Positions 87 through 38,553 of a stretch of 57,253 bases of DNA are shown here, in pieces. The stretch lies in NCBI GenBank assembly GCA_020047915.1, contig JAIFND010000079.1, forward strand, positions 1-57,253, read 5' to 3'. The notes under the pieces are model-generated. The model was not told where the DNA came from. It made no database searches and saw nothing but the letters and a program-made list of their open reading frames with translations. The stretch comes from a bacterium. GTDB taxonomy: Bacteria > Planctomycetota > UBA11346. Both the position numbers and the translations under genes were made by a program. Position 1 is the stretch's first letter; each line of letters begins with the position of its first letter.

Positions 87-1184
87 CTAGGACGGCTTAA
101 GCAGGTCGCGCCACGCCGATTCCCAGCGTTCGGCGACGGCGTCCCAGGTGTAGGAGAGGACGGCAGTGCGCGCGGCCATGCCGAGCGCGTGACGGCGGGC
201 GGGGTCGGCGGCGAGGTCGGCCACCGCTGCCGCGAAATCGGGTACGGTGTTCGGCACCGGCAGCACGCAGGCGCCGGCTGGGGCTAGGCAGTTGAGCACG
301 GCCCCGCCCGGTCGGCCGACGATCGCCAGACCGGAGGCCGCCGCTTCCAGCAGCACATTCCCCCACGGCTCGCCAGCGGGCGGAAACGCGAAGATGTCCG
401 CCGAGGCGTAGGCCTGACTTAGCGCGTTGCCGCTCAGGACACCGGGGAACACCGCCCACGGCAGCGCGGCGCGCAGGGCCGGCCCCTCGGGGCCGTCGCC
501 GACGATCACAGCCCGCAGCGCGGGGTGGCGCGCGCGTGCCGCCTGACAGGCCGCAACCAGGGCGCCTGGATCCTTGATCGATAGCAGCCGGCCGACCGAC
601 AGGATGACCGGGGTCTCGGGCGTTGCCCCCCACGCCAGACGCATGGACGGGTCACGCCAGCGGGGATGGAAATCCTCGGTATCAACCCCGCGCCCGATCA
701 CGGCGACGGACTCGACGCCCAGGCTCGCCAGCAACGCGGCTCCAGGCTGTCCCAGAGCCACGCTCAGGCTACAGCGGCGGTGAAAAGCGGCCATTTGTGC
801 CAGGACCCGGGATTCCGCCTCTGGCGATCCCGTCAATCTGTCGATGCGGTGGAAGGTGGCCGTGGTCGGCAGACCGAGTTGCGTGGCGGCATCGAGGGCG
901 GCCAGGCCGACATTGCCTGCCAGTTCGATGTGCACGAGGTCGGGTCGGCGGGTGGCCCAACGCCGGGCGAGCTCGCGCATGAACGCTGTGCGCACCGCGC
1001 GCAGTCGCTGCGCTGCGGCCTGCGCCTCACCAGGCGGTGGGGCCTCGGGGCAGGTGATCAGGGTCAGGTCGTGGCCGCGCGCCAGCAGGGCCTGGCGCCA
1101 GCGGGCGACGGCCAGGCCGGTCCCCGCGATCGCGGTGGCCGCCTCGCGGGTGAGGATCGCATCGACGCACAGGGGGTCGGACAT
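87..1184 (-). CDS. Glycosyltransferase family 4 (GT-B fold)
   Basis: Motifs GRGVDTEDFHP, ILSVGRL..IKD, IVGDGP, YASADIFAFP...EPWGNVLLEAAASGL. Start placed at ATG 1184 (MSDPL); the ORF is open to 1319. Confidence 0.85.
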   Translation of the reverse strand: MSDPLCVDAILTREAATAIAGTGLAVARWRQALLARGHDLTLITCPEAPPPGEAQAAAQRLRAVRTAFMRELARRWATRRPDLVHIELAGNVGLAALDAATQLGLPTTATFHRIDRLTGSPEAESRVLAQMAAFHRRCSLSVALGQPGAALLASLGVESVAVIGRGVDTEDFHPRWRDPSMRLAWGATPETPVILSVGRLLSIKDPGALVAACQAARARHPALRAVIVGDGPEGPALRAALPWAVFPGVLSGNALSQAYASADIFAFPPAGEPWGNVLLEAAASGLAIVGRPGGAVLNCLAPAGACVLPVPNTVPDFAAAVADLAADPARRHALGMAARTAVLSYTWDAVAERWESAWRDLLKPS

Positions 1185-1304
1185 GTGGGCAAACTCGGGC
1201 ATTGTTTCAAAATTCATAGAGTATGGCCATGCACCGACAGTTGCAAGCCAAAGCCTTGCGCTGTGTTTGCTCGGCGTATCACCTAATCCCCACTGGAGGT
1301 CGTC

Positions 1305-4300
1305 GTGAGGAACCGCCATCTCGTCCCCACTCTCGCCATGCTGGCCTTGGCCGGCATGTTGCCCGCCGAAGACGGTGTTGCTCCGGTCACAACCCTGGCT
1401 GTTGACGACACGCTCCTCACCCCTTTTTCGGACGGTGGTTCGGTCCCCGATGTCCTGGCCAGCGATGCCATTCCCCCAGACACGGCCATTGATCTATCGA
1501 CGCTATTCGGCCGATTTTACGCCTACTCCACCTCGACCTGGGTGAATTTCTCTGGTCGTCTGACAACGGCTGGCATCGCTGTCATTGCCGCACATAGCGA
1601 TGGGGCCGGGGATTGGGAGTACTACGATGGCACCTCTTGGCTTACCCTTCCTGGGGCGATCAGTGATGCAAACGCGTTCCTGATCCCACTTGGGAATAGC
1701 GAACCTTCGTATTTGCTCCGCTTCCACGCGTATGCCTCGTCCGGCGATGCCCGGCCGACGCTTTCCTTCCGCGCCTGGGATGGGACGAGCGGCACACCAT
1801 TGTCCATGGAGGACACTACCAATTCCGACCTCTTCGCCCCGCAAACCTACGGCGGATCACCGACGGCTTTTTCGGCCGAGACGCGTACTTTGACGGTGCA
1901 GGTCGTGGCGGAAAATGACAGCCCCGCACTGGTAAGCGACCCCGCGGCTCCGGAGATCATCGCCTTCATCCCCAAGACGGTGGGCGACCTCTTGGCCACT
2001 ACCGCCCCATTCACGGATCCTGATCCCGCGACGAATCTGGGAATCGCCATTGATAAATTCGACACGGTCGATGCTGGTTGGGAATACAGCCAGGATGGCG
2101 GAACAAACTGGTCGTCTCTGGCAACTGTCCAACCCGGGGCCGAAAGTGGCACGGTCTTTGTTCTGGGACCAGACGACCAACTCCGCTACACGGGAAGCGG
2201 CTCTGGATCGGAGCTGCTTACCCTCCACGCCTGGGATCAGACCATGGGGGCCCCCGGCGATACATTCGTCACGGACGGCAGCATCTCGGGCTCGTCGATT
2301 GGCGTAGTTGTCAATGCCAATAATCAGCCGGTGTTGGTATCCCCGTCCTCGCCCCCGTTCCCTCCATTGACCATCGATGTGCGCCGGGGAACGGATTATG
2401 AGCTGTCGCTGTCGGCTAGCGATATCGACACTGACGACCAGCTGACCTGGAGCGCAGCCTCGACCTCCTATAGTTCCGGTGGCACGGTTACCGTGGGGGA
2501 CAGTAGTGCGGCTGAAACCACGGCGACCTATGCCGCGCCAACCGACCCCACTGTCACCAGTGATGAGATCGAAGTCACGATTACCGATCTGGCCGGCAAC
2601 CAGGCCACCGCCCTCGTAACTGTGAATATCATCGAAAATGCCTCGCCGACCTGGACCGCCCCTGGCCCTTTCAATCTCGACGAGGTTACGGTCGGAGAGG
2701 AGGATCCATCCGGGACCTATTTGTCGGACCTGCTGATCAACGCGATCGACGACCTCGACGGCAATCCGGATGGCATTGCGATCATCGGCGCCACCACCAC
2801 CGGCTTTGGCACGTGGCAGATCGGGAATGATGTCGAAGGCATCTATTACAGCGACCTCGGCGAAGTCAGTGACAATGCGGCGATCCTCCTGGATTCCTTG
2901 GATTCCCGCCTGATCCGCTACCTGCCTGGCAGCAGCAATGAGACGGTGACCCTGACCATCCGGGCCTGGGATCAGACGAGCAACGACACCGATCTGACGA
3001 ATCCGGTAGACGGCGGCCATGTGTCGCTGGAAACCCGCACGATCACGGTCGTGGTGGCCGGCGCCAATGCCGCCCCGGAGATCACCAGCCATCCGACCTC
3101 GCAGAGCGTCATCACTGGCCGACCGCTGACCCTGACCTTTGCGGGCATGGATCCGGATGGCGACGCGTTGACCTGGACCCTGAGCGGCGACATCGCCGGC
3201 ACGGCCTACTCCGACGAAATCGCTGGGACCTCTCCGGAATTCTCGCTGACCGCCGGCAATCCCGGAAGCGGCACGCTCAACGTGACGGTGAGCGACGGTA
3301 CTGACAACGCGTCGATCGACATAAACGTCGAGGTGCTGGCCAACAACGCCCCGGCCATCATCAGCGCGGCCCCTGGCACCATCGCCATCTCCGGTCAGCC
3401 GTGGGAGGCCCTGGTGACAGCGACGGATGCCGATGCGGGCGATCTCGCCCTGCTCGCCGCCGGTGGAGTGCCGACCTCGTGGATGACGCTCAGCCAGCTG
3501 GGCGCTGGACGCTGGAAGATCCACGGCACGCCGGGCAACGGCAATGTGGACACCACGACCTCTTTCTTTTTCACGGTCTCCGACCCGTCGTCGGCCCAGG
3601 CTTCAGTCAGCTTCTCGGTGACGGTCCTCGACAGCAGCGTGCAGCCGGTGTCCGGCCCGCAGGTCCCGGTCTCGACCCCCGGTGCGGTGACCTACGCCTC
3701 GATCCATCCCGGCAGCAGCGCCAACCTGACCTCGTTGTCGGCGGCGCTGGCCCTGTCCGGACGCCAGCGCGCGCGCGGCTTCTGGTGGTCGCCGGGCGGC
3801 GCGGCCTTCGGCGAACTGCCGGCTTCGCCGGCCGATCCGGCCTCGGCCGGCATCTTCGTCGCCTCGCTCGATCCGCTGAATGTCACCTATGACGCGCCGA
3901 TCCACGCCGCCCCCTATGCGATCACCCTGCCGGCGAATTCGTGGAGCTTCATCGGCATCCCGCCGATCCAGCTCGATGCTGTCAGCAGCACGGCGACGAC
4001 CAGCCACGCGTGGGATGACTTTCGACTGGAGACGACGGCTGGCGTCCCGCTTGACGAGACTACCGTGCTGAGCGTCCTGGCCGGCACCAGCAACCTGGCC
4101 GACATCGAACCGTGGTCGTGGGATGGCACCGCCTACAACCGGGTTGAGACCCTGCAGACCGGCACCGCCTACTGGGTGCGCAATCGCAGCAGCACGACAT
4201 ATCGTCTGGTGCGCGCCACCAGCGGCGCATCTGGCACCTTCGGAACCATGGGTGTGCAGCCGTCGCCTGCCCCGGCCCCCATGGCGGTCAACCTGGCTCA

Positions 4301-4454
4301 AGCGCCCGAGACCCCGCCTGCCCCGCCCAGCGGCCTGGCCAGCCCGGCATCCCAGCCCGCCCAGCAGGCCGATGGCAGCTGCGGCGCCGGCGGCCTCGCC
4401 GGCCTGTTTGCCGCCACGTTGCTCGCCCTCGGACTGCGCCGGCGCCGGAACTGA
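1305..4454 (+). CDS. Large secreted surface protein with Ig/cadherin-like repeats and a C-terminal Cys-Gly-Gly/TM/Arg sorting signal
   Basis: Signal peptide. Three GIA(V/I)...W(E/Q)...AWD(G/Q)T repeats. NxxP..D.D.D.LTW cadherin/Big-like units. C-terminus CGAGGLAGLFAATLLALGLRRRRN. Confidence 0.8.
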   Translation: MRNRHLVPTLAMLALAGMLPAEDGVAPVTTLAVDDTLLTPFSDGGSVPDVLASDAIPPDTAIDLSTLFGRFYAYSTSTWVNFSGRLTTAGIAVIAAHSDGAGDWEYYDGTSWLTLPGAISDANAFLIPLGNSEPSYLLRFHAYASSGDARPTLSFRAWDGTSGTPLSMEDTTNSDLFAPQTYGGSPTAFSAETRTLTVQVVAENDSPALVSDPAAPEIIAFIPKTVGDLLATTAPFTDPDPATNLGIAIDKFDTVDAGWEYSQDGGTNWSSLATVQPGAESGTVFVLGPDDQLRYTGSGSGSELLTLHAWDQTMGAPGDTFVTDGSISGSSIGVVVNANNQPVLVSPSSPPFPPLTIDVRRGTDYELSLSASDIDTDDQLTWSAASTSYSSGGTVTVGDSSAAETTATYAAPTDPTVTSDEIEVTITDLAGNQATALVTVNIIENASPTWTAPGPFNLDEVTVGEEDPSGTYLSDLLINAIDDLDGNPDGIAIIGATTTGFGTWQIGNDVEGIYYSDLGEVSDNAAILLDSLDSRLIRYLPGSSNETVTLTIRAWDQTSNDTDLTNPVDGGHVSLETRTITVVVAGANAAPEITSHPTSQSVITGRPLTLTFAGMDPDGDALTWTLSGDIAGTAYSDEIAGTSPEFSLTAGNPGSGTLNVTVSDGTDNASIDINVEVLANNAPAIISAAPGTIAISGQPWEALVTATDADAGDLALLAAGGVPTSWMTLSQLGAGRWKIHGTPGNGNVDTTTSFFFTVSDPSSAQASVSFSVTVLDSSVQPVSGPQVPVSTPGAVTYASIHPGSSANLTSLSAALALSGRQRARGFWWSPGGAAFGELPASPADPASAGIFVASLDPLNVTYDAPIHAAPYAITLPANSWSFIGIPPIQLDAVSSTATTSHAWDDFRLETTAGVPLDETTVLSVLAGTSNLADIEPWSWDGTAYNRVETLQTGTAYWVRNRSSTTYRLVRATSGASGTFGTMGVQPSPAPAPMAVNLAQAPETPPAPPSGLASPASQPAQQADGSCGAGGLAGLFAATLLALGLRRRRN

Positions 4455-4456
4455 CC

Positions 4457-7400
4457 GTGGCCGACGCCCCCAAGCCGTCGCCGCGCGACGTGCAGGACAT
4501 GATCATGACGCGGCTCGCCAACGAGCCGCAGCCGGCCGAGCCGATGGCGGACACCAGTCCGACTGCGGATGCCGGGGCGGCGACGCGCGCGACCGAGGCC
4601 GCGTCGCCTGATGCCGCGACCGTGGTCGCCGCTGATCCCGACGCGACCCGGGCCTCGACCGGGCAGTCCTCGCAGACCCTGTCCGCGTCGGGCGCGCTGA
4701 CCGGTTCGACCCGGCGCGGCACCGGCACCTTCACCCGCCTCGGCCGCACGCGCACCAACGCGACGCTGCCACGCGACACCCAGGACCTCGACCTCAAGCT
4801 GCAGATGTCGCGCGGCAGCGTGCTGGCCGACCTCGGCCGGCTCGGCCCCGGCAGCCTCCCGCCCGGGGTGCAGAAGCTGATCGACGAGCACGGCACCGAG
4901 GGCCGCTACGCGGTGGACAAGCCGCTCGCGCAGGGCGGCATGGGCGCGGTGCTGCTGATCAAGGACGGTGACTTCCAGCGCCCAGCGGCGATGAAAGTGA
5001 TGCTGTCGCGCTACGCGCAGAACGCCGAGGCGATGGAGCGCTTCCTCGCCGAGGCGCAGGTGACGGCCCAGCTTGAACACCCCAACATCGTGCCGATCCA
5101 TGATCTCGGGATCATGGAGGATGGCACCGTGTACTTCACCATGAAGTACATCGAGGGCGAGTCGCTGGGCAGCGTGGTGAAGAAGCTGAAGAGCGAGGAC
5201 GCCGCGGTCGCCGCCAAGGCCGCCGCCGAGTGGAGCGACGAGCGCATCCTGCTGACCTTCCTCAAGGTCCTGGACGGGATGAGCTATGCCCACGCCAAGG
5301 GCGTGGTGCACCGCGACATCAAGCCGGACAACATCATGCTCGGCGGCCACGGCGAGGTCCTGGTGGTTGATTGGGGCATCGCCAAGGTCCTTGGCCGCGA
5401 TGAACTGGGCAAGACCCAGGACGTGGTGCACCTGCGCGATCAGGACGCGCTGTCGCTGACCCGCGAGGGCGCGACGATGGGCACCCTCTACTACATGCCG
5501 CCCGAGCAGGCGAGCGGCGAGCTGGCCGCGATCGGCCCGCATAGCGATGTGTACGCCCTCGGCGCCACGCTCTACGAGTTGCTGACGCGCAAGCGGCCGA
5601 TCAGCGGACCGACCGCTGCCGACATCATCGCCAAGGTGGTGCGCGGCGAGATCGTCCCGGTGTCCGAAGCGCGGCCTGATCTGCCCGCCGACCTCGCGGC
5701 CATCGTGATGAAGGCCATGGCTCTGGCGCCGGAGCGCCGCTACCCGCAGTGCGGTGCCTTCGCCGAGGATGTGCGGCGCTACCTGGCCGGACAGGCGGTG
5801 GCGGCACGCCAACGCAACCTGATCGAACGCATCGGCGCGTGGGTGGCGGCGCATCGCCGCCAGGTGCTGGCCGGCGCCGCCGGCGTGGTACTGGTCGCCG
5901 CCAGCACCGGGGCTGCGGTGTGGTGGACACGCAGCGCCGAAGCCCAGCGCCTGGCCGGCCTGGTCGCGCAGGCTGAAAGCGCCGCGGCCGCAGGCCGCTG
6001 GCAGCAGGCCTACGAGGCTGCGGCCCAGGCCGGCCAACTGCCCGCCGCCATCGCGATCAAGGCCAAGGCCGAGGCGGCGATCGATCAGGCCAAGCGCGAC
6101 GCCGTCGCTGCCGCCGCCGCCGAGGCGAACCGTGCCACCGCCCTGCGCCTCACCGCCGAGGCGCGCACCGCCAAGGGCGCGCAGCAGTGGGACACCGTGC
6201 GCGACAAGGCCAAGGCGGCGCTGGAGGCAGCGCCGATCGCCGAAGCCCAGGACCTGCTCGCCGAAGCCAGCGCTGCGCTGGCCGACGCACAGCGCCAGGA
6301 GCAGCGCGCCAAGGCCCTGACCCACAAAGCCGCCGGTGACGCTGCCCTGGCGACGGCGACGGCGCTGGCCCTGCTTGACCCCAAGCTGCCCGAGGCGATC
6401 TCCAGCGCCCGCGCGGCCTACGCACTGAGCGCCGCCGATGGTGTGGCGATCAGCGGGGTCGATGTCGCCTTGGCCAAGCTCGGCGAAATGCAGGCGCGCA
6501 GCGATCAGGAGACCAAGAACGAGGCGAAGCGCGTGGCCGAGGCCGCCGAGGTGGCGCGCCGGCGCACCCAGGCCGACGAGGCCCTGGCTGCGGCCGAGAC
6601 CGCGCTGGGTGCCGGCCAGCTTGATCAGGCCGCCGAGCAGGTCGCAGCGGCACGCAAGCTGGCGCCCGCCGACGAACGCGCCAACGCCCTGCGCGAGCGC
6701 GTGCTTGACGCCCTGCGCCAGCGCGAAGCGCAGCGCGCCGGCGAGGCCGCCCGTGCCCAGGCCCGGCGCAGTGCCGCCGACAGCCTGGCCACCGCACGAA
6801 CTGCCGCAGCCGCGATGCAGGCCGCAGCGCAGGAGCACGCCACGCGCAGCGCCGAGGCTGCCCGCCTCGAAACCGCCCTCGCCGCCGAGCCGGTCGAGCG
6901 CAAGCAGACGCTGTTCGCGGCGCGCGCCGCGGCGCAACAGGCGCGCGCCCAGGTCGCCGAGCAGTGGGCCCTGGCCGAAGGCGCGGCACGCGGCGCCCTC
7001 GATGCGCTGGCCGGTGAGCCGCAGCACGCTGATGCCCTCGCCGCCCGTGCCCTGCTCGTCGACCTGTATCGCGGCCGGCTGGGCGATGCGCGGCGCAGCG
7101 GCGCCCTGCCCGAGATCGCCGCCTTCACCAACCTGCTGCGCCGCCTGGGCAGCGACCCCGGCGCCACCGGTGAGGGCCGCCTGGCGCTCAGCGGTGCGGC
7201 CGGCACGCGGATTGCCATCCACCGCCTGGCTGAAGATGGCCTTGGCCGGCTGATCGCCGCCGCGGCGGCCCTGTCCGAGGCGACCCTGCCCAGTGCGGCG
7301 CTCGCCCTGCCGGCCGGCCGCTACGAACTGCGCGCCGGCGACGAACTGGCCAGCGTGGTGATCGGCGATGGCGTCGAGACAACCCTCGCCTGGGCCCCGG

Positions 7401-8122
7401 CCGACCGGCCGCAGATCCCCGGCCTGCGCCTGCGCTGGGTGCCGCACGGCCGCGGCTTCTGGCTGGCCGAGGACGAGGTGACGATCCGCCAGTACGCCAA
7501 CTTCCTGGCCGATGCCGCGATCGCCACCCAGGTGCGCGCCAGCTGGCTGGCCTACAAGCAGGACGACACGAAGTTCCTGAGCCTGTTCCCGCGCCAGGGC
7601 GGGGCGCCGGATGAAGCGGTGTGGCAGCCGGTGCCCGGCGCCGACGGTATCAGCCTGGCCAGCTGGACGCCCAAGCGCGACACCCTTGGCGAACCGCTGC
7701 GCGGTGTCTCGCGCGACGACGCCGTGGCCTACTGCCAGTGGCTCGGACGCGCCACCGGCCGCAGCGTACGCCTGCCGACCCTGGCCGAGTGGCGCGCTGC
7801 CGCCAACGGCGGCGACGACCGCCGCATCCATCCCTGGGGTCCGGGCTTCGACCATACGTTGGCCACCAGCGCCGTGCCCAAGAAAGACCACCCGCCGGTG
7901 GTTGGCAGCGCATCCAGCGATCGCGGTCCCTACGGCCACCGCGATCTCGCTGGCGGCGTGCGCGAGTGGGTCAGCGACGGCGGCCTGGTCTATGATGCGC
8001 GCATCGCCGGCGGTGCGTGGACCGACGAAGACCCCGCCCGCCTGCGCTGCGACTCGGTCGAAAGCACCTCCGCCTCCGCCACCTTCGCCGCCATCGGCTT
8101 CCGCATCCTGGTTGAACCATGA
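4457..8122 (+). CDS. Membrane Ser/Thr protein kinase with Ala-rich helical region and C-terminal FGE/SUMF1-like domain
   Basis: Kinase motifs [59 protein letters not shown]-like motifs [41 protein letters not shown]. Confidence 0.9.
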
Positions 8123-9243
8123 TCCGCACGACCCCGCTGCTCCTGCTCATCGCTCTCGGTTTCGCCGCCGAGCCCGAACCCGTCGCCCCGGCCCCCGCCG
8201 CCGAACCGGCGGTGACCCCGCCGCCCGCCGAGGCGCCGGTCACCCCCGCGCCGGTGGAAGCGGCGGTGACGCCACCGCCCGTCGAGACCACGGCCGTCCC
8301 GCCGCCGACCCCACTCGCGCCCCGGGCGCGGACGGGCGGCAGGGTGGCCCGCGTCGCCGGGGCGGCGCCCACCTGGGATGGGCGTCTGCGCATCGGTGCC
8401 GGCTGGGACTCGAACGCTCTGCTCGATAGCGACCCCGACACGGCGCAGTCGAAAACCTCGGTGTATAGCGGCGAGGCGGCTGTCGGCTGGCGTCCGGTCG
8501 CTGATCAGACCGACTACGTGAAGCTGACCGCCACGATCGGACAGGAGCAGCGGCCCCTGCTCGACGACCTGGACACCACCCGCCTGGCCCTGAGCGCAGC
8601 GGGGGCCAGCCAGGGTGAGACCCTGACCACCGGCGGCAGCATTTCAGCGGCGCGCTACTGGCTCGAAGGTGATGGTGCCGCTGCCGAACTACGTGGTGGC
8701 GCCAGCCTGGGCTGGTTGCGCCAGGACAGCGCCGATCTGCTGGCGCTTGAACTGGCGGCGATCCATTTCGACACCGGCACCGACCGGCCAGAAGGGGCCG
8801 AAGGCCTCTTCGACCTCGGCGATGCCGATGACCGCAGCGGTGTGCTGGTCGCCGGCAGCTGGCGGCATTGGTGGCAGCTTGGCGGCGGCAGCCGGCTTGA
8901 GGCCGGGGTGCGCGCCGGCCTCTTCTCGGCCAACAGCGAGGTCGAGAGTTATCAGCTCGCCCAGCCATTCATCGCACTGCGTCTGCGTCCGGCCGGCTGG
9001 GACATCAATGCCCGCGCTGCCGTCGAAGGCCGTGCCTATGATGGCTCGCGCGTCGCCGGCCAGGATGATGAGTCGGCGGTGATCGGCACCCTGGCGGCCA
9101 GTGCCGACCGCAAGCTGGCCGGCAACCTGTGGGCGGGCGCCACCGCCGGCCTGTCCGCACGCGACAGCTCGCTCAACGAACGTGACTACGAACGCTGGCA
9201 GGTCGGTGCCCGCCTGACCTGGACCTTTGCGGCCGAGGAATGA
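8119..9243 (+). CDS. Putative outer-membrane beta-barrel protein (DUF560/Slam-like or BBP-like)
   Basis: Signal peptide, Pro-rich linker, GAGWDSN barrel-start motif, alternating amphipathic strands, terminal strand RWQVGARLTWTF. ATGA overlap with the kinase stop. Confidence 0.7.
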   Translation: MIRTTPLLLLIALGFAAEPEPVAPAPAAEPAVTPPPAEAPVTPAPVEAAVTPPPVETTAVPPPTPLAPRARTGGRVARVAGAAPTWDGRLRIGAGWDSNALLDSDPDTAQSKTSVYSGEAAVGWRPVADQTDYVKLTATIGQEQRPLLDDLDTTRLALSAAGASQGETLTTGGSISAARYWLEGDGAAAELRGGASLGWLRQDSADLLALELAAIHFDTGTDRPEGAEGLFDLGDADDRSGVLVAGSWRHWWQLGGGSRLEAGVRAGLFSANSEVESYQLAQPFIALRLRPAGWDINARAAVEGRAYDGSRVAGQDDESAVIGTLAASADRKLAGNLWAGATAGLSARDSSLNERDYERWQVGARLTWTFAAEE

Positions 9244-9247
9244 CCCC

Positions 9248-10114
9248 ATGCGCCACCTGATCCTCCTCCTCTCCGCCACCGTCCTGTGCGCCGCCGATCC
9301 GGTCGGCCACTGGCGTTTCGGGCTCGGCTCGGTCGATGGCCAGCCGGCCCGCATCGGCACCATCGTGCTCACCGGCCAGCAGGTCGTGGCGGCGACGACC
9401 GCGCCGCTGCGTCTGGTCTGTCACGAGGCGCCCGGCATCACCACCATCCTCGCCCCCGGCTCGACCGGCCGCTTCCTGGTCGAAGGCCAGGCTGATGCGC
9501 GGACCCTGGTCCTCGAGTTGGAGAGCGGCGTGGCGCAGCTCGACATCACCGATCGTGCGCCCTACGCGGCCGTGCGTGTGCGCGGTGCGGCCCTCGACGT
9601 GCGTGTCACCGGCACGCTGTTCGTCGTCGAGCGCACCCGCCGCGACGCCGACTACATCGCCCTGGTGCGCGGCAAGGTCGTCGTCGGCCTGCGCCCGGAA
9701 GTCGCCAAGGCGCTGGGCAAGGCCGGCGAGATCGAACTGCTCGAACGCCAGGGCATGGCGGCGGACACCGCCAACGGACTGGGTTCGCCCAGCGAGATGA
9801 GCACCCGCCCGCAGGTCACCGCGATGGCGCCGCTGTCCGAGCAGGCCTCGGGACAGGGCACCGACTGGGATATCGACCTGGGAGCCGAACTGACCGGCGC
9901 CCTGCTCGAGAACAATGGTCTGGGCGATGTCCCGGGACCGGCCGATGAACTCGCTGGCGGCACCCCGTTCAGCGAAGTGGCCGAGGAACTGGTCGACAGC
10001 ATGGCCGAACTCGGTGCCCCGCCCGAATCGAGCGGCGACACGGCCAGCGAGATCGCCGGCGGATCGACGAGTGGCGCGCCGCCGCTCCTGCCCGGACCGC
10101 CCAGCCCTCCGTAA
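9248..10114 (+). CDS. Secreted FecR-domain protein with acidic/Pro-rich tail
   Basis: Signal peptide MRHLILLLSATVLCA. FecR-like LELESG..., VRVTGTLFVVE, IALVRGKVVV. Starts 4 bp after the barrel stop. Confidence 0.75.
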   Translation: MRHLILLLSATVLCAADPVGHWRFGLGSVDGQPARIGTIVLTGQQVVAATTAPLRLVCHEAPGITTILAPGSTGRFLVEGQADARTLVLELESGVAQLDITDRAPYAAVRVRGAALDVRVTGTLFVVERTRRDADYIALVRGKVVVGLRPEVAKALGKAGEIELLERQGMAADTANGLGSPSEMSTRPQVTAMAPLSEQASGQGTDWDIDLGAELTGALLENNGLGDVPGPADELAGGTPFSEVAEELVDSMAELGAPPESSGDTASEIAGGSTSGAPPLLPGPPSPP

Positions 10115-10125
10115 CGTGTGGTGAG

Positions 10126-10270
10126 CCTAAACGCAGCATTCCACACAGAGAACCAGAGCTACCAGAGGTCAAGACAAGGATTTGCGCGATTTCTTGGGTT
10201 CACCCGGACGGTGCATATTTCCCCTCTGGTCACTCTGGTGCTCTGTGTGACCGCTATCGCCGGGTTTAGG
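10126..10270. mobile_element. MITE copy 1 (145 bp)
   Basis: Termini CCTAAAC...GTTTAGG. Flanked by direct repeat GTGAG (10121-10125, 10271-10275). Near-identical to 15997-16145 and 54285-54449. Confidence 0.85.
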
Positions 10271-10338
10271 GTGAGTCGTCATGGGGAACGTACCGAGACG
10301 TATTCTCGGACTTCCCACATCCTGTTGCTGACCGGCTG

Positions 10339-11256
10339 TCACGCCTGCTGATCGGCAAGCAGGCGCACGCCGCGCGTCCGCCATGGCTCGACCGCACGCG
10401 GCGGCAGCTCGGGCCGAGTGCCGACGAAGCGGCGATGCTGCCAGAAGTACTGCCCCGGAGCGGCCAGCACCATCGCGCCGAGCAGGTCCATGACGTGCTG
10501 CGTGTCGCGCACCCGGTCGCCGGTGGTGAGGTACGGCCGGCCGACGAATAACTGGCTGACCCCGGCGCGACGGCGCACCGCGAAGCCGGGGATGATCGGC
10601 ACGCCGGCCTTGTGCGCGAAGAAGGCTGGGCCGTCGAAGCCGAGGGTCGGCTGGCCGAGGTACCACACCGGGCTGCCCTCCCACGGCCGCTGGTCGGCCA
10701 TGATGCCGAGAGCCGCTCGGCGGCGCAGGGCGCGCAGCGCCTGGACCCCGGTCGAGCGATCGGCCGAACCGACCATCAGCACCTTCACGCCAAAGCGCCA
10801 GCGCTGGGCGTTGAGCAGTTCGTCCATCGCCGGATTGTGCTGTGCCTTGGCATAGACGATGACCTCGGGGATGTGCCGGGTCATGCCATGACCCGCCATG
10901 TCCCAGTCGCCGTGGTGGCTGGACAGGAAGACGGCTGACGGATGGCGGCGCACCTGCAGGTCGATCCAGCGCGGATTGAGCACCACGGCATGCCGTTCCG
11001 GCCCATCAGGCCCGCCCGCTGTCCACACCTGCACGAACTGCGCTCCCATGCTGGCGTAGGAGCGGCGCACCACCCGCGCTCGCGCCGGCCCACGCAGGCC
11101 GAGGCAGTCGGTCACCTGCCGGCTGGCCAGGCGACGCCGGACCCCGATCCGCCAGGCGAGAATCCCCAGCGTGCCGCCGAGGCGACAGGCGGTATCGGCA
11201 GCCAGCCGGTTAAGCAGGCGGAGGAGGAATATCTGGAGCCACGCCACGGGCGGCAT
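10339..11256 (-). CDS. Lipid A biosynthesis acyltransferase (LpxL/HtrB family)
   Basis: SSHHGDWD (HxxxxD), YAKAQHNP, GIMADQ, PGQYFWQHRRF. Confidence 0.85.
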   Translation of the reverse strand: MPPVAWLQIFLLRLLNRLAADTACRLGGTLGILAWRIGVRRRLASRQVTDCLGLRGPARARVVRRSYASMGAQFVQVWTAGGPDGPERHAVVLNPRWIDLQVRRHPSAVFLSSHHGDWDMAGHGMTRHIPEVIVYAKAQHNPAMDELLNAQRWRFGVKVLMVGSADRSTGVQALRALRRRAALGIMADQRPWEGSPVWYLGQPTLGFDGPAFFAHKAGVPIIPGFAVRRRAGVSQLFVGRPYLTTGDRVRDTQHVMDLLGAMVLAAPGQYFWQHRRFVGTRPELPPRAVEPWRTRGVRLLADQQA

Positions 11257-34656: not shown

Positions 34657-37600
34657 ATGCCGTCAGACCGCCCCCTCGATGTCACCCGACCTGATGCCGA
34701 ACTCGCGGCCGAGGCGGCGCGCCTCGCCGAGCGTTTCCACGGCCGGGGGGCTGGCGATCCGCTGGACAGCACCACGCCGCGCACCCAGGGCACGACTCCG
34801 CCCGATCCTGGCGACCGGGTGCCGCCGGAACTGCCGGACAATGCGCTGGCCGAGGGCGGACGCTGGTCGTTCCAACGCCTGCTCGGTGGAGGCGGGGGGG
34901 GCGAGGTCTTCGCCTTCGAGGACGGCCTGCTCGGCCGTCCGGTCGCGGTCAAGGTGCTGCCAGCCGCGGTCTCGGCCCAGCCCGAGCGCGCCCGCCACTT
35001 CATCGACGAGGCGCGTACCGCCGCCGCCCTCGAGCATCCCAGCGTGCTGCCGGTACACGATCTCGGGCGGGCCGCCGATGGCCGGCTGTGGTTTGCTATG
35101 CGGCAGGCGAGCGGCCGCTCCCTGGCCGCGATCATCAGCGATCTCGCCGCCGGCCACAGCGCCGAGCGTCTGGAGCCGCTCAACGAGCGGGTCGGTCTGA
35201 TCGTCCGGGTTTGCGACGCGATCGCCTTCGCGCATGCGCGCGGCTATCTGCACTGCGATATCAAGCCGGGCAACATCATGGTCGGCGATTACGGCGAGGT
35301 CCTGGTCGTCGACTGGGGCTCGGCCGTGCGCCTTGGCGGCGGTGGCATCGGCGGTGGCGGTGGCACCCCGCTGTATATGGCGCCCGAGCAGGCCCGACAC
35401 GGGTCGGCTGTCGCTTCATGGGACATCTACGGCCTTGGGGCGACCCTGTGGCATCTCGTGTTGCTGCGCCCGCCGCTCCACGACGTCGCTCCGGAGCGCT
35501 TCTGGGAGCGCAAACGCCAGGGCGAGTTCGATCCGCCCACCGAGGTCGAGCGTGCCGCCGTGCCGGCGAGCCTGTTGGCGGTGATGGAGCGGGCGGTGCA
35601 CGCCGATCCGGCTGCACGCCAGGCCAGCATCGAGGCGCTGCGCGACGAACTGCGTGCGTGGCTTCGGCATCGTGATGCCGAAGCGGTGGTCGCCACCGCC
35701 GAACGCCACCTCGACGAACTCAAGCGGCATGGCGACTACGAGGCCTTCCAGCGGATCGAGAACGACCTGCAGCGGGTCCTCGCGGAATCGCCGGCCCTGG
35801 TCGCGGCGCGCCAGGCCCTCGCCCGGGTGCGCGGCAGCAAGGCGCGTCTCGCCATCAGGCGCGGCGACCTGGCGCTGGCCGAGGGTCTGCTCGATGCGGC
35901 CGAGCCGCAGCATCGTTCGGTGTTGCGGGATCTGCTGGCGGCGCGGCGGACGCAGCGGGTGCAGCGCCGCCTCGGGTGGACCGCCAGCGTGCTGGCCATG
36001 CTGGCGTTCGTTGTGCTCGCGGCCTGGATCTGGCGCGAGCACCGCGCCAGCTTCGGTCTATGGCAGACGGTCTGGCAGCATGATTTCACGACCACCGAGG
36101 CAGCTCAGGGCCTCACCACCGGATCGTGGGACGCCGACCTCAACCTGTCGGCGCGGCAGCGTCTTCCGGTCGCCGCCCAGGCGGGCGGACTGATCCTCGG
36201 GGCGCAGCAACTGCTCCACCTGCCGGTCGAGGTGCCGGGCAGCGTACGCGTCACCGTCGATGCGACCTGGACCGCCGGGCTCGATGCCTGCGAAATCATC
36301 GTCAACGCCTCGCCCGAGCATCCTGATCGTTCGTTCCTGTATCCGCCGGGAATCGTCGCCCAGTTCGCCGGCTACCGCGGCCACCGCACGCTGATCGCCG
36401 TCCAGCGCCAACCCGGCATGCTGCAGTCGTCCGAGGAGACCCATGTCCCATTCGAACGCGGCCGCCGCTACCGTCTGGAGTTGGCCGTCGAGGACGGCCG
36501 CTGCATCCTGGCGGTGGATGGCCGTCAGGTGCTGGCCTACCAGGATGCCCGACGACTGGGCGACGATGCCTATCGCCATATCCATTTGCGTGCCTGGCAG
36601 CCGGGCCTGCGCCTGGAGAATCTGCGGGTCGAACGGCTGGGCGATCCGCGACGGGCGAGCCCGCTGCGCTATGCCGACGGCCTGCTCGACGCCGGTCGCA
36701 GCGAGCAGGCGGCGACCGCCTACCTGCAATTGGCAGACGACCATCCCGGCACGGCGTTGGAAGCTGATGCGCTGCTGGGGGCCTGCGTTGCGCTGCAAGG
36801 CAGCGTGCGGTTGCCGGACCTGCTGCAACGGCTCGAGCGCGGACATCCCGGCAATCCGCGGTTGGCGGCGATGTGGGAACTGGACGCCATCGCCGCCATC
36901 GACGGCGATGATCTGCCGCGCGCGTTGCAGCGTCTGACCCAGATCCACAGCTCGGATCCGGCCAGCCGCGCGCCACTGCGCCTGCTTGGCCATGCCGCCT
37001 ACCGTACAGAGCCGGAGGCCACGCGTGCCATGGTGCAGGCGGCGACGCGGATCGAGGGCCGCTTCGTCCTCGATCTGCGTGGCCACCGGCTTGGCAGCCT
37101 CGAGCCGCTGCGTGGTGCGCCACTCATCGAACTGCACGCCGAAGGCTGTGGCAGTGGCGATCTGTTGCCACTGTCCGGCATGCCGCTGCGTGAACTGTCG
37201 GTGGCCGCAACGGTGGTCCGCGATCTGTCTCCGCTGTCCGGCATGCCGCTGGAGCGGTTGCAGCTAACGGAGACTGAGGTCGCCGACCTGCGTTCCTTGG
37301 CGGGCATGACATCGTTGAGCGATCTGTCGCTCGCCCAGACCCGTGTCAGCAGCCTGTCGCCGTTGACCGGCCTGTCCTTGCAAACCATCGACATCAGCCG
37401 CACTGCCGTCGGTGATCTGCGGCCCCTCGCGGGGATGCCATTGTGGCGTCTCCAGGCCGACAACACCCCGGTTGCCGATCTCACCCCACTAGGCACCACA
37501 CACCTGCACACGCTCGAACTGGACGGCAGCGCCGTGGCCACGCTGGCCCCGCTCGCGGGCGGCAAGCTCCGCCGCCTGGTCATCAACCGCACGCGGATCA

Positions 37601-38553
37601 GCGACCTCACGCCGCTTCGCGGTCATCCGCTGGAAGAGCTGGATGCCACCGACACCCCGATCGCCGACTTGTCGCCGCTGGCTGCGAGCGTCCTGCGCGA
37701 GGTGCGCCTGGATCGCAGCCAAGTCCGCGACCTCTCGGCCCTGGCATCGGGCAGGCTCCGTAAACTGGGCATCGCCGGCACTCCGGTGACCGATCTGGCG
37801 GCGCTCGCCGGCCAACCGCTATTCGACCTCGACATCTCGGACACCGCAGGCCTGGACCTGCGGCCAGTCGTCACCAGCCTAGTGCAGTTGAGGGCCCAGG
37901 ACGCGCGGCTGGATCTCGAACCGCTGCGCGGTTCGAGGATCGTCAGGCTCGACCTGCGCGGAGCGCGCGTCTCGTCGTTTGCTCCGCTGCTGGGCATGCC
38001 GCAGCTACGGCAGGTGTTCCTCCATGGCGCGGTTGCTGTCGATGGAGGTACGCTCGAGGAACTGGCCGACGGCCTGCGGCGGCGGGGGGCGGAAGGGCCA
38101 GCCGAGGCGGCGCTAATCGCAGCGTTGGTCGGCCGCGGCGACTGGACCGGCCTGCGACGCCTTGCCACCTACGCGGATGGTCGGCTGATCCTCGACCTCC
38201 GCCATCGCATGACCTGGGATTCCGCCCGCGCCCTGGCGGCGCGGGCCGGCGGCCATCTCCCCCATGCGTCGGCCGCGTTGCGTCTGCTGATCGATCGGCC
38301 CGACAGCGACACCTTCTGGTTGGGGGCAGCCCACGACGCAGAGGTCGGCTGGCGCTGGGATGATGGCACGTCGCCGTCGAAAGCCGATGCCCGGGCCTTC
38401 GCCCTGGTCAGTCGGCGGGCGGATCGCCTGCTCGCCAATCGGGGCTTGCTTGCGGGCTTCTATGCGGGCTTTTCGTCCGCTGAACCGTACGGCGACGGCG
38501 AGTCCGGCGTCATCCTCACTTGGGCCGCGGACGGGAACCGCGAGCGTCCGTAG
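34657..38553 (+). CDS. Receptor-like Ser/Thr kinase: kinase-TM-beta-sandwich-TPR-like-LRR-C-type-lectin-like
   Basis: GGGGGGEV, VAVK, HCDIKPGN, DWG, GTPLYMAPE; TM ASVLAMLAFVVLAAWIW; ~15 LRRs; TWDSARALAARAGGHL...FWLG...WRWDDGT. Confidence 0.88.
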   Translation: MPSDRPLDVTRPDAELAAEAARLAERFHGRGAGDPLDSTTPRTQGTTPPDPGDRVPPELPDNALAEGGRWSFQRLLGGGGGGEVFAFEDGLLGRPVAVKVLPAAVSAQPERARHFIDEARTAAALEHPSVLPVHDLGRAADGRLWFAMRQASGRSLAAIISDLAAGHSAERLEPLNERVGLIVRVCDAIAFAHARGYLHCDIKPGNIMVGDYGEVLVVDWGSAVRLGGGGIGGGGGTPLYMAPEQARHGSAVASWDIYGLGATLWHLVLLRPPLHDVAPERFWERKRQGEFDPPTEVERAAVPASLLAVMERAVHADPAARQASIEALRDELRAWLRHRDAEAVVATAERHLDELKRHGDYEAFQRIENDLQRVLAESPALVAARQALARVRGSKARLAIRRGDLALAEGLLDAAEPQHRSVLRDLLAARRTQRVQRRLGWTASVLAMLAFVVLAAWIWREHRASFGLWQTVWQHDFTTTEAAQGLTTGSWDADLNLSARQRLPVAAQAGGLILGAQQLLHLPVEVPGSVRVTVDATWTAGLDACEIIVNASPEHPDRSFLYPPGIVAQFAGYRGHRTLIAVQRQPGMLQSSEETHVPFERGRRYRLELAVEDGRCILAVDGRQVLAYQDARRLGDDAYRHIHLRAWQPGLRLENLRVERLGDPRRASPLRYADGLLDAGRSEQAATAYLQLADDHPGTALEADALLGACVALQGSVRLPDLLQRLERGHPGNPRLAAMWELDAIAAIDGDDLPRALQRLTQIHSSDPASRAPLRLLGHAAYRTEPEATRAMVQAATRIEGRFVLDLRGHRLGSLEPLRGAPLIELHAEGCGSGDLLPLSGMPLRELSVAATVVRDLSPLSGMPLERLQLTETEVADLRSLAGMTSLSDLSLAQTRVSSLSPLTGLSLQTIDISRTAVGDLRPLAGMPLWRLQADNTPVADLTPLGTTHLHTLELDGSAVATLAPLAGGKLRRLVINRTRISDLTPLRGHPLEELDATDTPIADLSPLAASVLREVRLDRSQVRDLSALASGRLRKLGIAGTPVTDLAALAGQPLFDLDISDTAGLDLRPVVTSLVQLRAQDARLDLEPLRGSRIVRLDLRGARVSSFAPLLGMPQLRQVFLHGAVAVDGGTLEELADGLRRRGAEGPAEAALIAALVGRGDWTGLRRLATYADGRLILDLRHRMTWDSARALAARAGGHLPHASAALRLLIDRPDSDTFWLGAAHDAEVGWRWDDGTSPSKADARAFALVSRRADRLLANRGLLAGFYAGFSSAEPYGDGESGVILTWAADGNRERP
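37069..38028 (+). repeat. Leucine-rich repeat region, ~15 x 21 aa
   Basis: Consensus LxxLxLxxTxVxDLxPLxGxP. Confidence 0.9.

Follow-up and report, generated by a model that had tools for sequence, protein, structure and literature searches.

A gene core for a kinase, an outer-membrane barrel and a FecR-like protein in Planctomycetota: a candidate trans-envelope signalling module

Introduction

How could a bacterial kinase be told what happens at the cell surface? What is understood of signal transfer between outer membrane and cytoplasm comes mainly from the route of TonB-dependent transducer, FecR and extracytoplasmic function (ECF) sigma factor, and Hanks-type kinases with extracytoplasmic domains, although very numerous in Planctomycetota, almost all lack a known input. 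The stretch of DNA analysed here, hereafter the window, is 57,253 nucleotides long and represents contig C247 of a 3.97-Mb metagenome-assembled genome (MAG; G000, 79.8% complete). Four genes at positions 1305 to 10114 of the window raise the question whether such a kinase has envelope partners of its own: they encode a surface protein (P0001), a receptor kinase (P0002), an outer-membrane protein (P0003) and a secreted FecR-like protein (P0004). An earlier note on this DNA had proposed that the four form one trans-envelope system.

Results

A three-gene core is inherited together

All four open reading frames (ORFs) are co-oriented on the plus strand. They comprise the genes for the surface protein P0001 (1305..4454, 1049 amino acids (aa), from ORF and translation), the receptor Ser/Thr kinase P0002 (4457..8122, 1221 aa, from ORF and profiles), the outer-membrane protein P0003 (8119..9243, 374 aa, from ORF and structural model) and the secreted FecR-like protein P0004 (9248..10114, 288 aa from ATG, or 295 aa from TTG at 9227). 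The junctions, read directly, are TGA-cc-GTG between P0001 and P0002 (2-bp gap), ATGA between P0002 and P0003 (4-bp overlap) and TGA-cccc-ATG between P0003 and P0004 (4-bp gap, GAGGA upstream), just as the earlier note had given them. GGAGG is found 5 nt before the GTG start of P0001 at 1305, and the GC content at third codon positions ranges from 0.82 to 0.89 in the ORFs of P0002, P0003 and P0004. The four genes are real and tightly packed. A scan for promoters and terminators, which is uninformative in this phylum, yielded 0 promoter-like sites and no terminator at the junctions or after 10114. Domain scans of the four products and of nine flanking ORFs detected no TonB-dependent receptor, no sigma factor and no CHASE2 protein, in agreement with what had been noticed before.

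With one genome taken for each GTDB species, a pattern scan found 25 loci, all of them titled Planctomycetota MAGs (one labelled Planctomycetales, one Candidatus Kuenenia), which bears out the assignment to this phylum. At four of the 25 loci the contig ends before the kinase position; a homologue of P0002 lies directly upstream at all of the 21 assessable loci, and the order kinase-barrel-FecR is likewise kept in 21/21, counts that come from related genomes and are not independent of each other. The barrel gene between kinase and FecR was recognized by tblastn at 18 of the 21, by profile at two more (G011 and G008) and as a FecR-barrel fusion at the remaining one (G020). The same order was seen at 13 of 14 loci fetched around barrel matches. 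The synteny of the homologues on which the earlier note had made its proposal depend is therefore present for these three genes. Relative to the window proteins, the kinase homologues are 34-67% identical, the barrels 23-69% and the FecR-like proteins 34-66%. The start of the barrel gene overlaps the stop of the kinase gene by 4 nt in at least 11 of the 19 loci with both ORFs delimited, with starts assigned by a heuristic. Flanking genes are not conserved among the loci. Barrel profile matches occur in 18 of the 23 other genomes of the window's family, while across 377 genomes from the phylum's other families the profile found no more than two matches, both weak and partial (46.7 and 28.1 bits); these range counts are a floor, as a stricter first look was used. 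The three-gene core of kinase, barrel and FecR-like protein is co-inherited across one family, and in the genomes searched the module is confined to this one uncultured Planctomycetota family known from MAGs alone.

G000 carries a second, diverged copy of the module on the minus strand of contig C219 (L052, 1734-8243, identified by profiles). Its kinase-FGE gene (4761-8243) overlaps by 4 nt with the following gene (3118-4764, minus strand), which encodes a FecR-barrel fusion of 548 aa: the N-terminal half matches the profile of the FecR-like family (A1, E 6.9e-21) and the C-terminal half is homologous to the P0003 barrel (hhalign 96%, E 3.1e-9). The copy also encodes an unfused FecR-like protein (A1, E 5.6e-54), which ends in PGFPTP and is extended at its N-terminus by about 130 aa, and the last gene, cut by the contig end, specifies a large secreted protein with Flg_new repeats. 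Among the genomes searched, FecR-barrel fusions are present in G000, G008 and G020 only, and in G000:C219 and G020 the fusion gene directly follows a kinase-FGE gene; a further fusion is P0113 of the representative library (hhalign 98.7%).

Some irregular arrangements of the same two parts were also noted. A 2219-bp contig (L028) reads barrel end, FecR and barrel again, and at L038 (400-2454) barrel and FecR form one ORF of 684 aa on a contig with coverage near 1x; errors of assembly may account for both. The barrel ORF of G024 (L026, 9307-10482) runs into the FecR gene with an unrelated tail and shows three in-frame stops by profile; decay of this copy or an error in sequencing may be the cause.

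The kinase carries a predicted FGE-like ectodomain

P0002 has a Hanks-type kinase domain at residues 151-428 (4907..5740, plus strand; Pkinase PF00069, E 1.1e-35), which scores 123.7 bits against a curated cut-off of 31.7, while matches to PknB-like NCBIfam models stay under their equivalog cut-offs. Hanks kinases are defined by the catalytic Lys in VAxK and by the HRD, DFG-like and APE-like motifs; in the translation of P0002 the kinase motifs are intact as HRDIKPDN, DWG and MPPE. A single predicted transmembrane segment, read from the translation, spans approximately residues 469-490 (5861..5926, plus strand). Beyond this segment come about 400 Ala-rich, predicted helical residues, a conserved beta-rich region and an FGE-sulfatase domain at residues 997-1217 (7445..8107, plus strand; PF03781, E 3.5e-25, 89.6 bits, cut-off 23.3), the fold of which resembles that of C-type lectins. 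The helical stalk and the FGE-like domain would be periplasmic.

Structural relatives of the FGE-like domain in the PDB include 7spq ToxD, pFGE, FGE and OvsA, and true FGE activity of P0002 was considered. The catalytic cysteine pair of FGE presumably belongs in the C-terminal stretch after GG(A/S)W, short of which the PDB alignments stop; the alignment of 17 sequences (A3) shows no conserved cysteine pair after this position. We did not accept such activity: because no conserved cysteine occupies the presumed catalytic site, the domain probably does not make formylglycine.

The combination of kinase and FGE domain is in itself frequent in this genome. G000 has 68 Pkinase and 19 FGE-sulfatase matches and, judged by coordinates, at least eight kinase-FGE fusions. 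Matches to the FecR-like profile are found in G000 only beside two of the kinase-FGE genes. Prediction of a complex between the P0002 ectodomain (A3) and residues 18-288 of P0004 returned an ipSAE of 0.00 in two runs made without controls, a value that counts neither way on binding.

P0003 is modelled as a 14-strand barrel of an orphan family

P0003 consists of a signal peptide, a Pro-rich linker (about residues 18-80) and a barrel. An AlphaFold2 model computed on an alignment of 19 homologues (A2) predicts a 14-strand beta-barrel at residues 86-372 (8374..9234, plus strand) with a mean predicted local distance difference test score (pLDDT) of 81.3 and 237 residues at or above 90, whereas signal peptide and linker are disordered. 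By Foldseek, 344 chains of the PDB match the model at E ≤ 0.001, with OmpG and CymA, porins of 14 strands, at the top; the beta-barrel that had been predicted for 8119-9243 is thus confirmed at the level of the model. The last residue is W in 15 of the 19 homologues, and the other four, from the window's genus, carry a short extension after F or I. The N-terminus is Pro-rich without a fixed motif across the homologues.

No Pfam or NCBIfam family was assigned to P0003, and a precomputed Pfam domain was found in 0 of 23 relatives. The earlier note had suggested a check for DUF560/Slam, which gave no profile match: DUF560 (PF04575) does not match P0003 at E ≤ 0.1, and it matches one of the 19 homologues (E 0.00095) beside equally weak Autotransporter and OMP_b-brl matches. 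The nearest clusters in the ESM Atlas carry SlipAM on 41-47% and BBP2_2 on 27-36% of their members, which we treat as a lead only. Membership in Slam/DUF560 was rejected, as there is no profile match, no TPR domain and no sign of the cargo fold. By its model, P0003 is an outer-membrane-type 14-strand barrel of an orphan family.

P0004 is read as a divergent FecR protein that lacks anti-sigma parts

For P0004 the ATG at 9248 is the preferred start over the TTG at 9227 because of the signal peptide and the alignment. The protein contains a divergent FecR domain at approximately residues 20-190 (9305..9817, plus strand) with an invariant VxGTLxxVxR core. Against the FecR model PF04773 it scores 16.2 bits, below the cut-off of 24 bits; seven of 15 homologues match this model at E ≤ 0.01 (best 7.9e-7). 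Searched over 1.84 billion representatives, the A1 profile retrieved 188 proteins at E ≤ 0.001, 103 at 1e-10 and 85 at 1e-30. Ten of ten sampled weaker matches were PF04773 proteins above the cut-off, and the weaker matches include classical anti-sigma architectures (DUF4880+FecR+FecR_C, zf-HC2+FecR). Since the family profile retrieves true FecR proteins and homologues match PF04773, P0004 is, judged from these profiles, a small and divergent subfamily of the FecR domain, and in this form the FecR assignment of the earlier note holds. A sequence search of the PDB with A1 gave 0 matches at E ≤ 1. P0100, a relative of 539 aa from the A1 profile, was inspected and is not a barrel fusion.

Neither P0004 nor its homologues carry DUF4880, zf-HC2 or FecR_C, and they have a signal peptide only, with no transmembrane anchor. 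We discarded a function as FecR-type anti-sigma factor, as there is no cytoplasmic anti-sigma domain and no sigma factor or TonB-dependent transducer adjoining; P0004 would stay in the periplasm or at the outer membrane. Its C-terminus bears an L..PP.PP motif (10088..10111, plus strand; alignment, n=15), in which L281, P285 and P288 never vary among 15 FecR-like sequences and P284 and P287 hardly do. The PPxPP pattern is common to the C-terminus of the FecR-like proteins and to the region before the tag of P0001-like proteins.

The surface protein has a variable head and a conserved tagged end

P0001 comprises a signal peptide, Ig-like repeats (Big_9 36.1 bits, PKD weak; Pfam), a C-terminal domain of about 200 residues, a PPAPP motif and a Cys tail. 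With its 1049 aa it is large, yet not the giant protein that it had been called. Conservation of the N-terminal half is limited to the genus, while the C-terminal ~300 aa are kept across genera, and the head differs elsewhere, an example being an NHL/Vgb-like propeller in L021 in place of the Ig repeats of P0001. The gene is also lower in GC (0.60-0.63 over 1001-3000, compared with ~0.70 and more around). Low GC and genus-limited conservation are in keeping with a head that changes fast or has been exchanged.

The conserved C-terminal domain (about residues 780-981; 3642..4247, plus strand; alignment A4, n=14) is predicted to be mixed alpha/beta, with an AlphaFold2 mean pLDDT of 71.9 and core blocks at 72-92. 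Foldseek against the PDB found nothing at E ≤ 0.001 (best 0.18), the ESM Atlas gave an uninformative best score of 0.78 for the C-terminal part, and a word-based search returned 12 relatives of the domain, all unnamed or called 'hypothetical protein'. Behind it follows the PPAPP motif (residues 1004-1008; 4314..4328, plus strand), 18 residues before the tag cysteine. P255, P256 and P259 of A4, which form a G.PP.PP motif about 18-25 residues before that cysteine, are invariant in 14/14 P0001-like sequences. C277, G278 and G280 of A4 belong to the tag and are invariant as well, with the cysteine present in 14/14.

The tag itself occupies residues 1024-1049 (4374..4451, plus strand) and reads GSCGAGG, hydrophobic helix and RRRRN. 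MYXO-CTERM is described in the cited part of PMC11980579 as a tripartite signal of Cys motif, transmembrane helix and Arg-rich tail, and the P0001 tail has this architecture. Against the NCBIfam models it scores 16.6 bits with TIGR03382 GC_trans_RRR, above the cut-off of 15.85, and 16.8 bits with TIGR03901 MYXO-CTERM, below the cut-off of 20. A regular expression run on the six frames of G000 found 20 ORF ends with GCG.GG, a hydrophobic stretch and RRRR, 19 of which are convincing; the match on C240 was judged spurious. The convincing ends lie on contigs C10, C31, C57, C72 (two), C79, C100 (two), C109 and C118 and further on C131, C188, C204, C213, C216 (two), C244, C247 and C248. It was observed that GGGCGAGG, a hydrophobic helix and RRRR close about 19 large ORFs of this genome.

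In the cited part of the preprint by Haft, MYXO-CTERM is limited to Myxococcota and a few Bradymonadales, and matches elsewhere are treated as singletons. The ~19 tagged ORFs may represent an undescribed Cys-type sorting signal of Planctomycetota, and a MYXO-CTERM-like tag on this number of planctomycete proteins would widen the known range of such C-terminal signals. The sole CPBP/Rce1-like protease found in G000 (G000:C59:877-1140, L062, minus strand; PF02517, 74.4 bits) reaches 28.5 bits on the myxosortase core model (NF040914; cut-off 100); 10 of 14 control genomes come up to this level too. We name the protease as a candidate for sorting at the Cys tag, no more.

Neighbouring genes in the window

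The neighbours of the four genes encode a glycosyltransferase, a lipid A acyltransferase, an HTH_17 protein and an OmpA protein. The glycosyltransferase gene (87-1319, minus strand) is a divergent member of the GT4 family, and its longest ORF overlaps the start of the P0001 gene by 15 nt. The stretch from about 1200 to 1300 is AT-richer, which suggests a later GT4 start and a short shared promoter region. A second large kinase gene is located in the window at 34657-38553.

Discussion

A possible route from the cell surface to the kinase

We read P0001 to P0004 as a trans-envelope signalling module with kinase output and give this reading a probability of roughly 45%. The barrel and the FecR-like protein would act together as one outer-membrane unit; FecR-barrel fusions occur, and these parts are thereby tied together. 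This unit would relay the state of the cell surface to the ectodomain of the kinase, and the kinase would then phosphorylate cytoplasmic targets encoded outside the locus. Most likely the sensed state would be that of the variable Cys-tagged surface protein, which appears a likelier object than a free ligand because of the shared PPxPP motif and the recurrent adjacency of such proteins in three arrangements. Signalling is favoured by the ATGA packing, the conserved gene order, the fusions and the restriction of FecR profile matches in G000 to the surroundings of two kinase-FGE genes. The PPxPP pattern at the FecR C-terminus and before the P0001 tag points the same way, as do the parallels in FecA-FecR, CHASE2 clusters and NsrA given below. 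What we observed are the genes with their domains, the modelled barrel fold, the synteny and the fusions, whereas we infer every mechanistic step, with the topology, all contacts, the signalling direction and the ligand.

Several observations weigh against this signalling reading. The genomes compared are kin, so that the synteny counts are overstated. Of 16 assessable loci, 9 encode a homologue of the P0001 C-terminal domain immediately before the kinase (a P0001-like gene is also upstream in G009, and ~7 kb downstream in G024), so that of the four-gene system proposed earlier the three-gene core is constant and the surface-protein gene is not. No kinase substrate, FHA protein or regulator is conserved beside the module, where the downstream genes differ; a conserved downstream gene was considered as kinase substrate and dropped, the genes at window:11460-12596 and L043:11066-12253 being unrelated. 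Finally, a variant locus of G022 (L022, G022:C18:70000-89999, at 259-10404, minus strand) consists of barrel, FecR-like protein and, in a row downstream of these, two tagged P0001-like genes of about 1050 aa each, with unrelated genes (BNR/sortilin-like, oxidoreductases) upstream. No kinase was found within ~9 kb on either side of its barrel-FecR pair, which can thus exist without a kinase in cis.

A more specific form of the signalling reading, which we regard as unlikely, makes the module a sensor of contact or kin. Here the barrel-FecR pair would report the state of a polymorphic tagged receptor (its presence, ligand engagement or cell contact) to the eukaryote-like Ser/Thr kinase, whose non-catalytic FGE-like ectodomain would read the shared PPxPP tail. 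This would be a new class of cell-surface signalling and, if true, would rest on MYXO-CTERM-like sorting, described so far only in Myxococcota and relatives.

Alternatives to the signalling module

The alternative that survives best, although we hold it to be somewhat improbable, is that barrel and FecR-like protein form a dedicated device for handling or anchoring the Cys-tagged surface protein, TraB- or Slam-like, with the kinase only regulating or monitoring it. The kinase-less locus with its barrel, FecR and two tagged proteins would fit such a device, as would the large secreted Flg_new-repeat protein downstream in the C219 paralogue. P0001-like proteins, with a variable N-terminus and a conserved C-terminal 'handle' and tag, resemble the translocon cargo described in the cited part of PMC8406197, the modelled barrel has 14 strands with Atlas clusters that carry SlipAM/BBP2_2 (again a lead only), and TraA/TraB, as presented in the section cited of PMC3325183, pairs a MYXO-CTERM receptor with an envelope partner in one operon whose genes overlap. 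Set against this, P0003 has no PF04575 match (one weak match among 19 homologues) and no TPR domain, and the C-terminal domain of P0001 is modelled as mixed alpha/beta, not as an eight-strand barrel. The numbers do not favour a dedicated device either: about 19 tagged ORFs in the genome face two modules, seven of 16 assessable loci are without a surface-protein gene upstream, and the kinase is the most constant neighbour (21/21).

Those same seven loci, in which the three-gene core stands alone, would agree with a module that senses a soluble or polymeric external ligand, for instance a glycan, and has no functional tie to the surface protein. Entry or capture of the ligand would fall to the barrel and its periplasmic binding to the lectin-like FGE domain, and the FecR-like protein would serve as adaptor. 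The lectin-like fold and the 14-strand channels OmpG and CymA as top structural matches of the barrel are compatible with this idea, as is the fact that kinase-FGE fusions are commonly without partner (at least eight such fusions in G000). It leaves unexplained, on the other hand, both the PPxPP common to FecR-like and surface proteins and the repeated presence, in three arrangements, of large tagged or secreted proteins as neighbours, and we consider it quite unlikely. That neighbours of unrelated function were merely kept together by descent in a young lineage is highly improbable: all loci do come from one family, and shared ancestry inflates the synteny counts, but even where protein identity falls to 23-35% the genes stand in the same order and 4-nt overlaps are conserved, two of the parts were fused independently and a diverged paralogous copy with the same logic exists in the same genome.

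The signalling reading would have a practical consequence for the kinases. The module gives two kinases of G000 defined, co-inherited envelope partners, and kinase input thereby becomes a testable question of binding.

Comparison with known systems

A literature search, which did not extend to supplements and most subscription journals, gave no description of a Hanks kinase with barrel and FecR-like partner. The nearest kinases are Hanks kinases with a C-terminal FGE-sulfatase domain, which share the kinase-transmembrane-FGE architecture; FGE-sulfatase is listed among Proteo1 architectures in the part cited of a preprint on an atlas of Ser/Thr kinases (10.1101/2025.01.12.632604). In contrast to these, only two kinase-FGE proteins of G000 have barrel and FecR partners.

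The FecR domain acts as periplasmic relay in FecA-FecR signalling, and SMc02177 is a periplasmic FecR-domain protein (both after the section cited of PMC5498481). Like FecA-FecR-FecI, the present module encodes a barrel and a periplasmic FecR-domain protein together with a cytoplasmic signalling output. In contrast to that system, P0004 has a signal peptide without anti-sigma domain or transmembrane anchor, P0003 is a predicted 14-strand barrel with no plug or TonB-dependent receptor domain, and no sigma factor is nearby, the output here being a Hanks kinase. The earlier note had taken it as established that FecR-plus-barrel pairs are often found beside CHASE2 proteins, which the cited parts of two papers back only partly: FecR-domain proteins cluster with CHASE2 cyclases (PMC9239204), and in S. 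meliloti the outer-membrane barrel NsrA is required for signalling to the inner-membrane cyclases CyaK and CyaD (PMC7529298). The CHASE2-FecR-TPR clusters of Campylobacterota and NsrA-CyaK/CyaD, so far as these texts describe them, resemble the module in joining an inner-membrane receptor enzyme with a FecR-domain envelope protein or a barrel. Unlike them, the module is without CHASE2 or cyclase, has an FGE-like sensor on a helical stalk and would have protein phosphorylation as output; NsrA is moreover much larger than P0003, its barrel being placed at residues 600-1200 (PMC7529298).

Slam and the type 11 secretion system (T11SS) share with the module a 14-strand barrel beside a possible cargo with variable N-terminus and conserved C-terminus. 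T11SS barrels are reported with 14 strands and their cargo with an eight-strand C-terminal barrel, in the section cited of PMC8406197. T11SS is described for Proteobacteria, while the present module belongs to Planctomycetota. P0003 differs in having neither DUF560 match nor TPR domain, its N-terminus being a Pro-rich linker, with a FecR-like domain in the paralogue, and an eight-strand C-terminal barrel of the cargo type was not seen in the P0001 model.

TraA/TraB of Myxococcus xanthus, finally, likewise combines a polymorphic tagged surface protein and an envelope partner in an overlapping operon (PMC11980579 and PMC3325183, each cited in part). traA and traB have four bases in common and act jointly, and 34 tagged proteins are given for M. 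xanthus (PMC3325183, same section), compared with ~19 in G000. The differences are a different phylum, the lack of a PA14 or Cys-repeat domain here and of an OmpA domain in P0003, the absence of a kinase from TraAB and, with regard to myxosortase, a CPBP protease in G000 that stays at 28.5 bits where the cut-off of the core model is 100. Against the background of these systems we regard the module as a variant of envelope signalling of the FecR type; possibly it is instead one of surface-protein handling.

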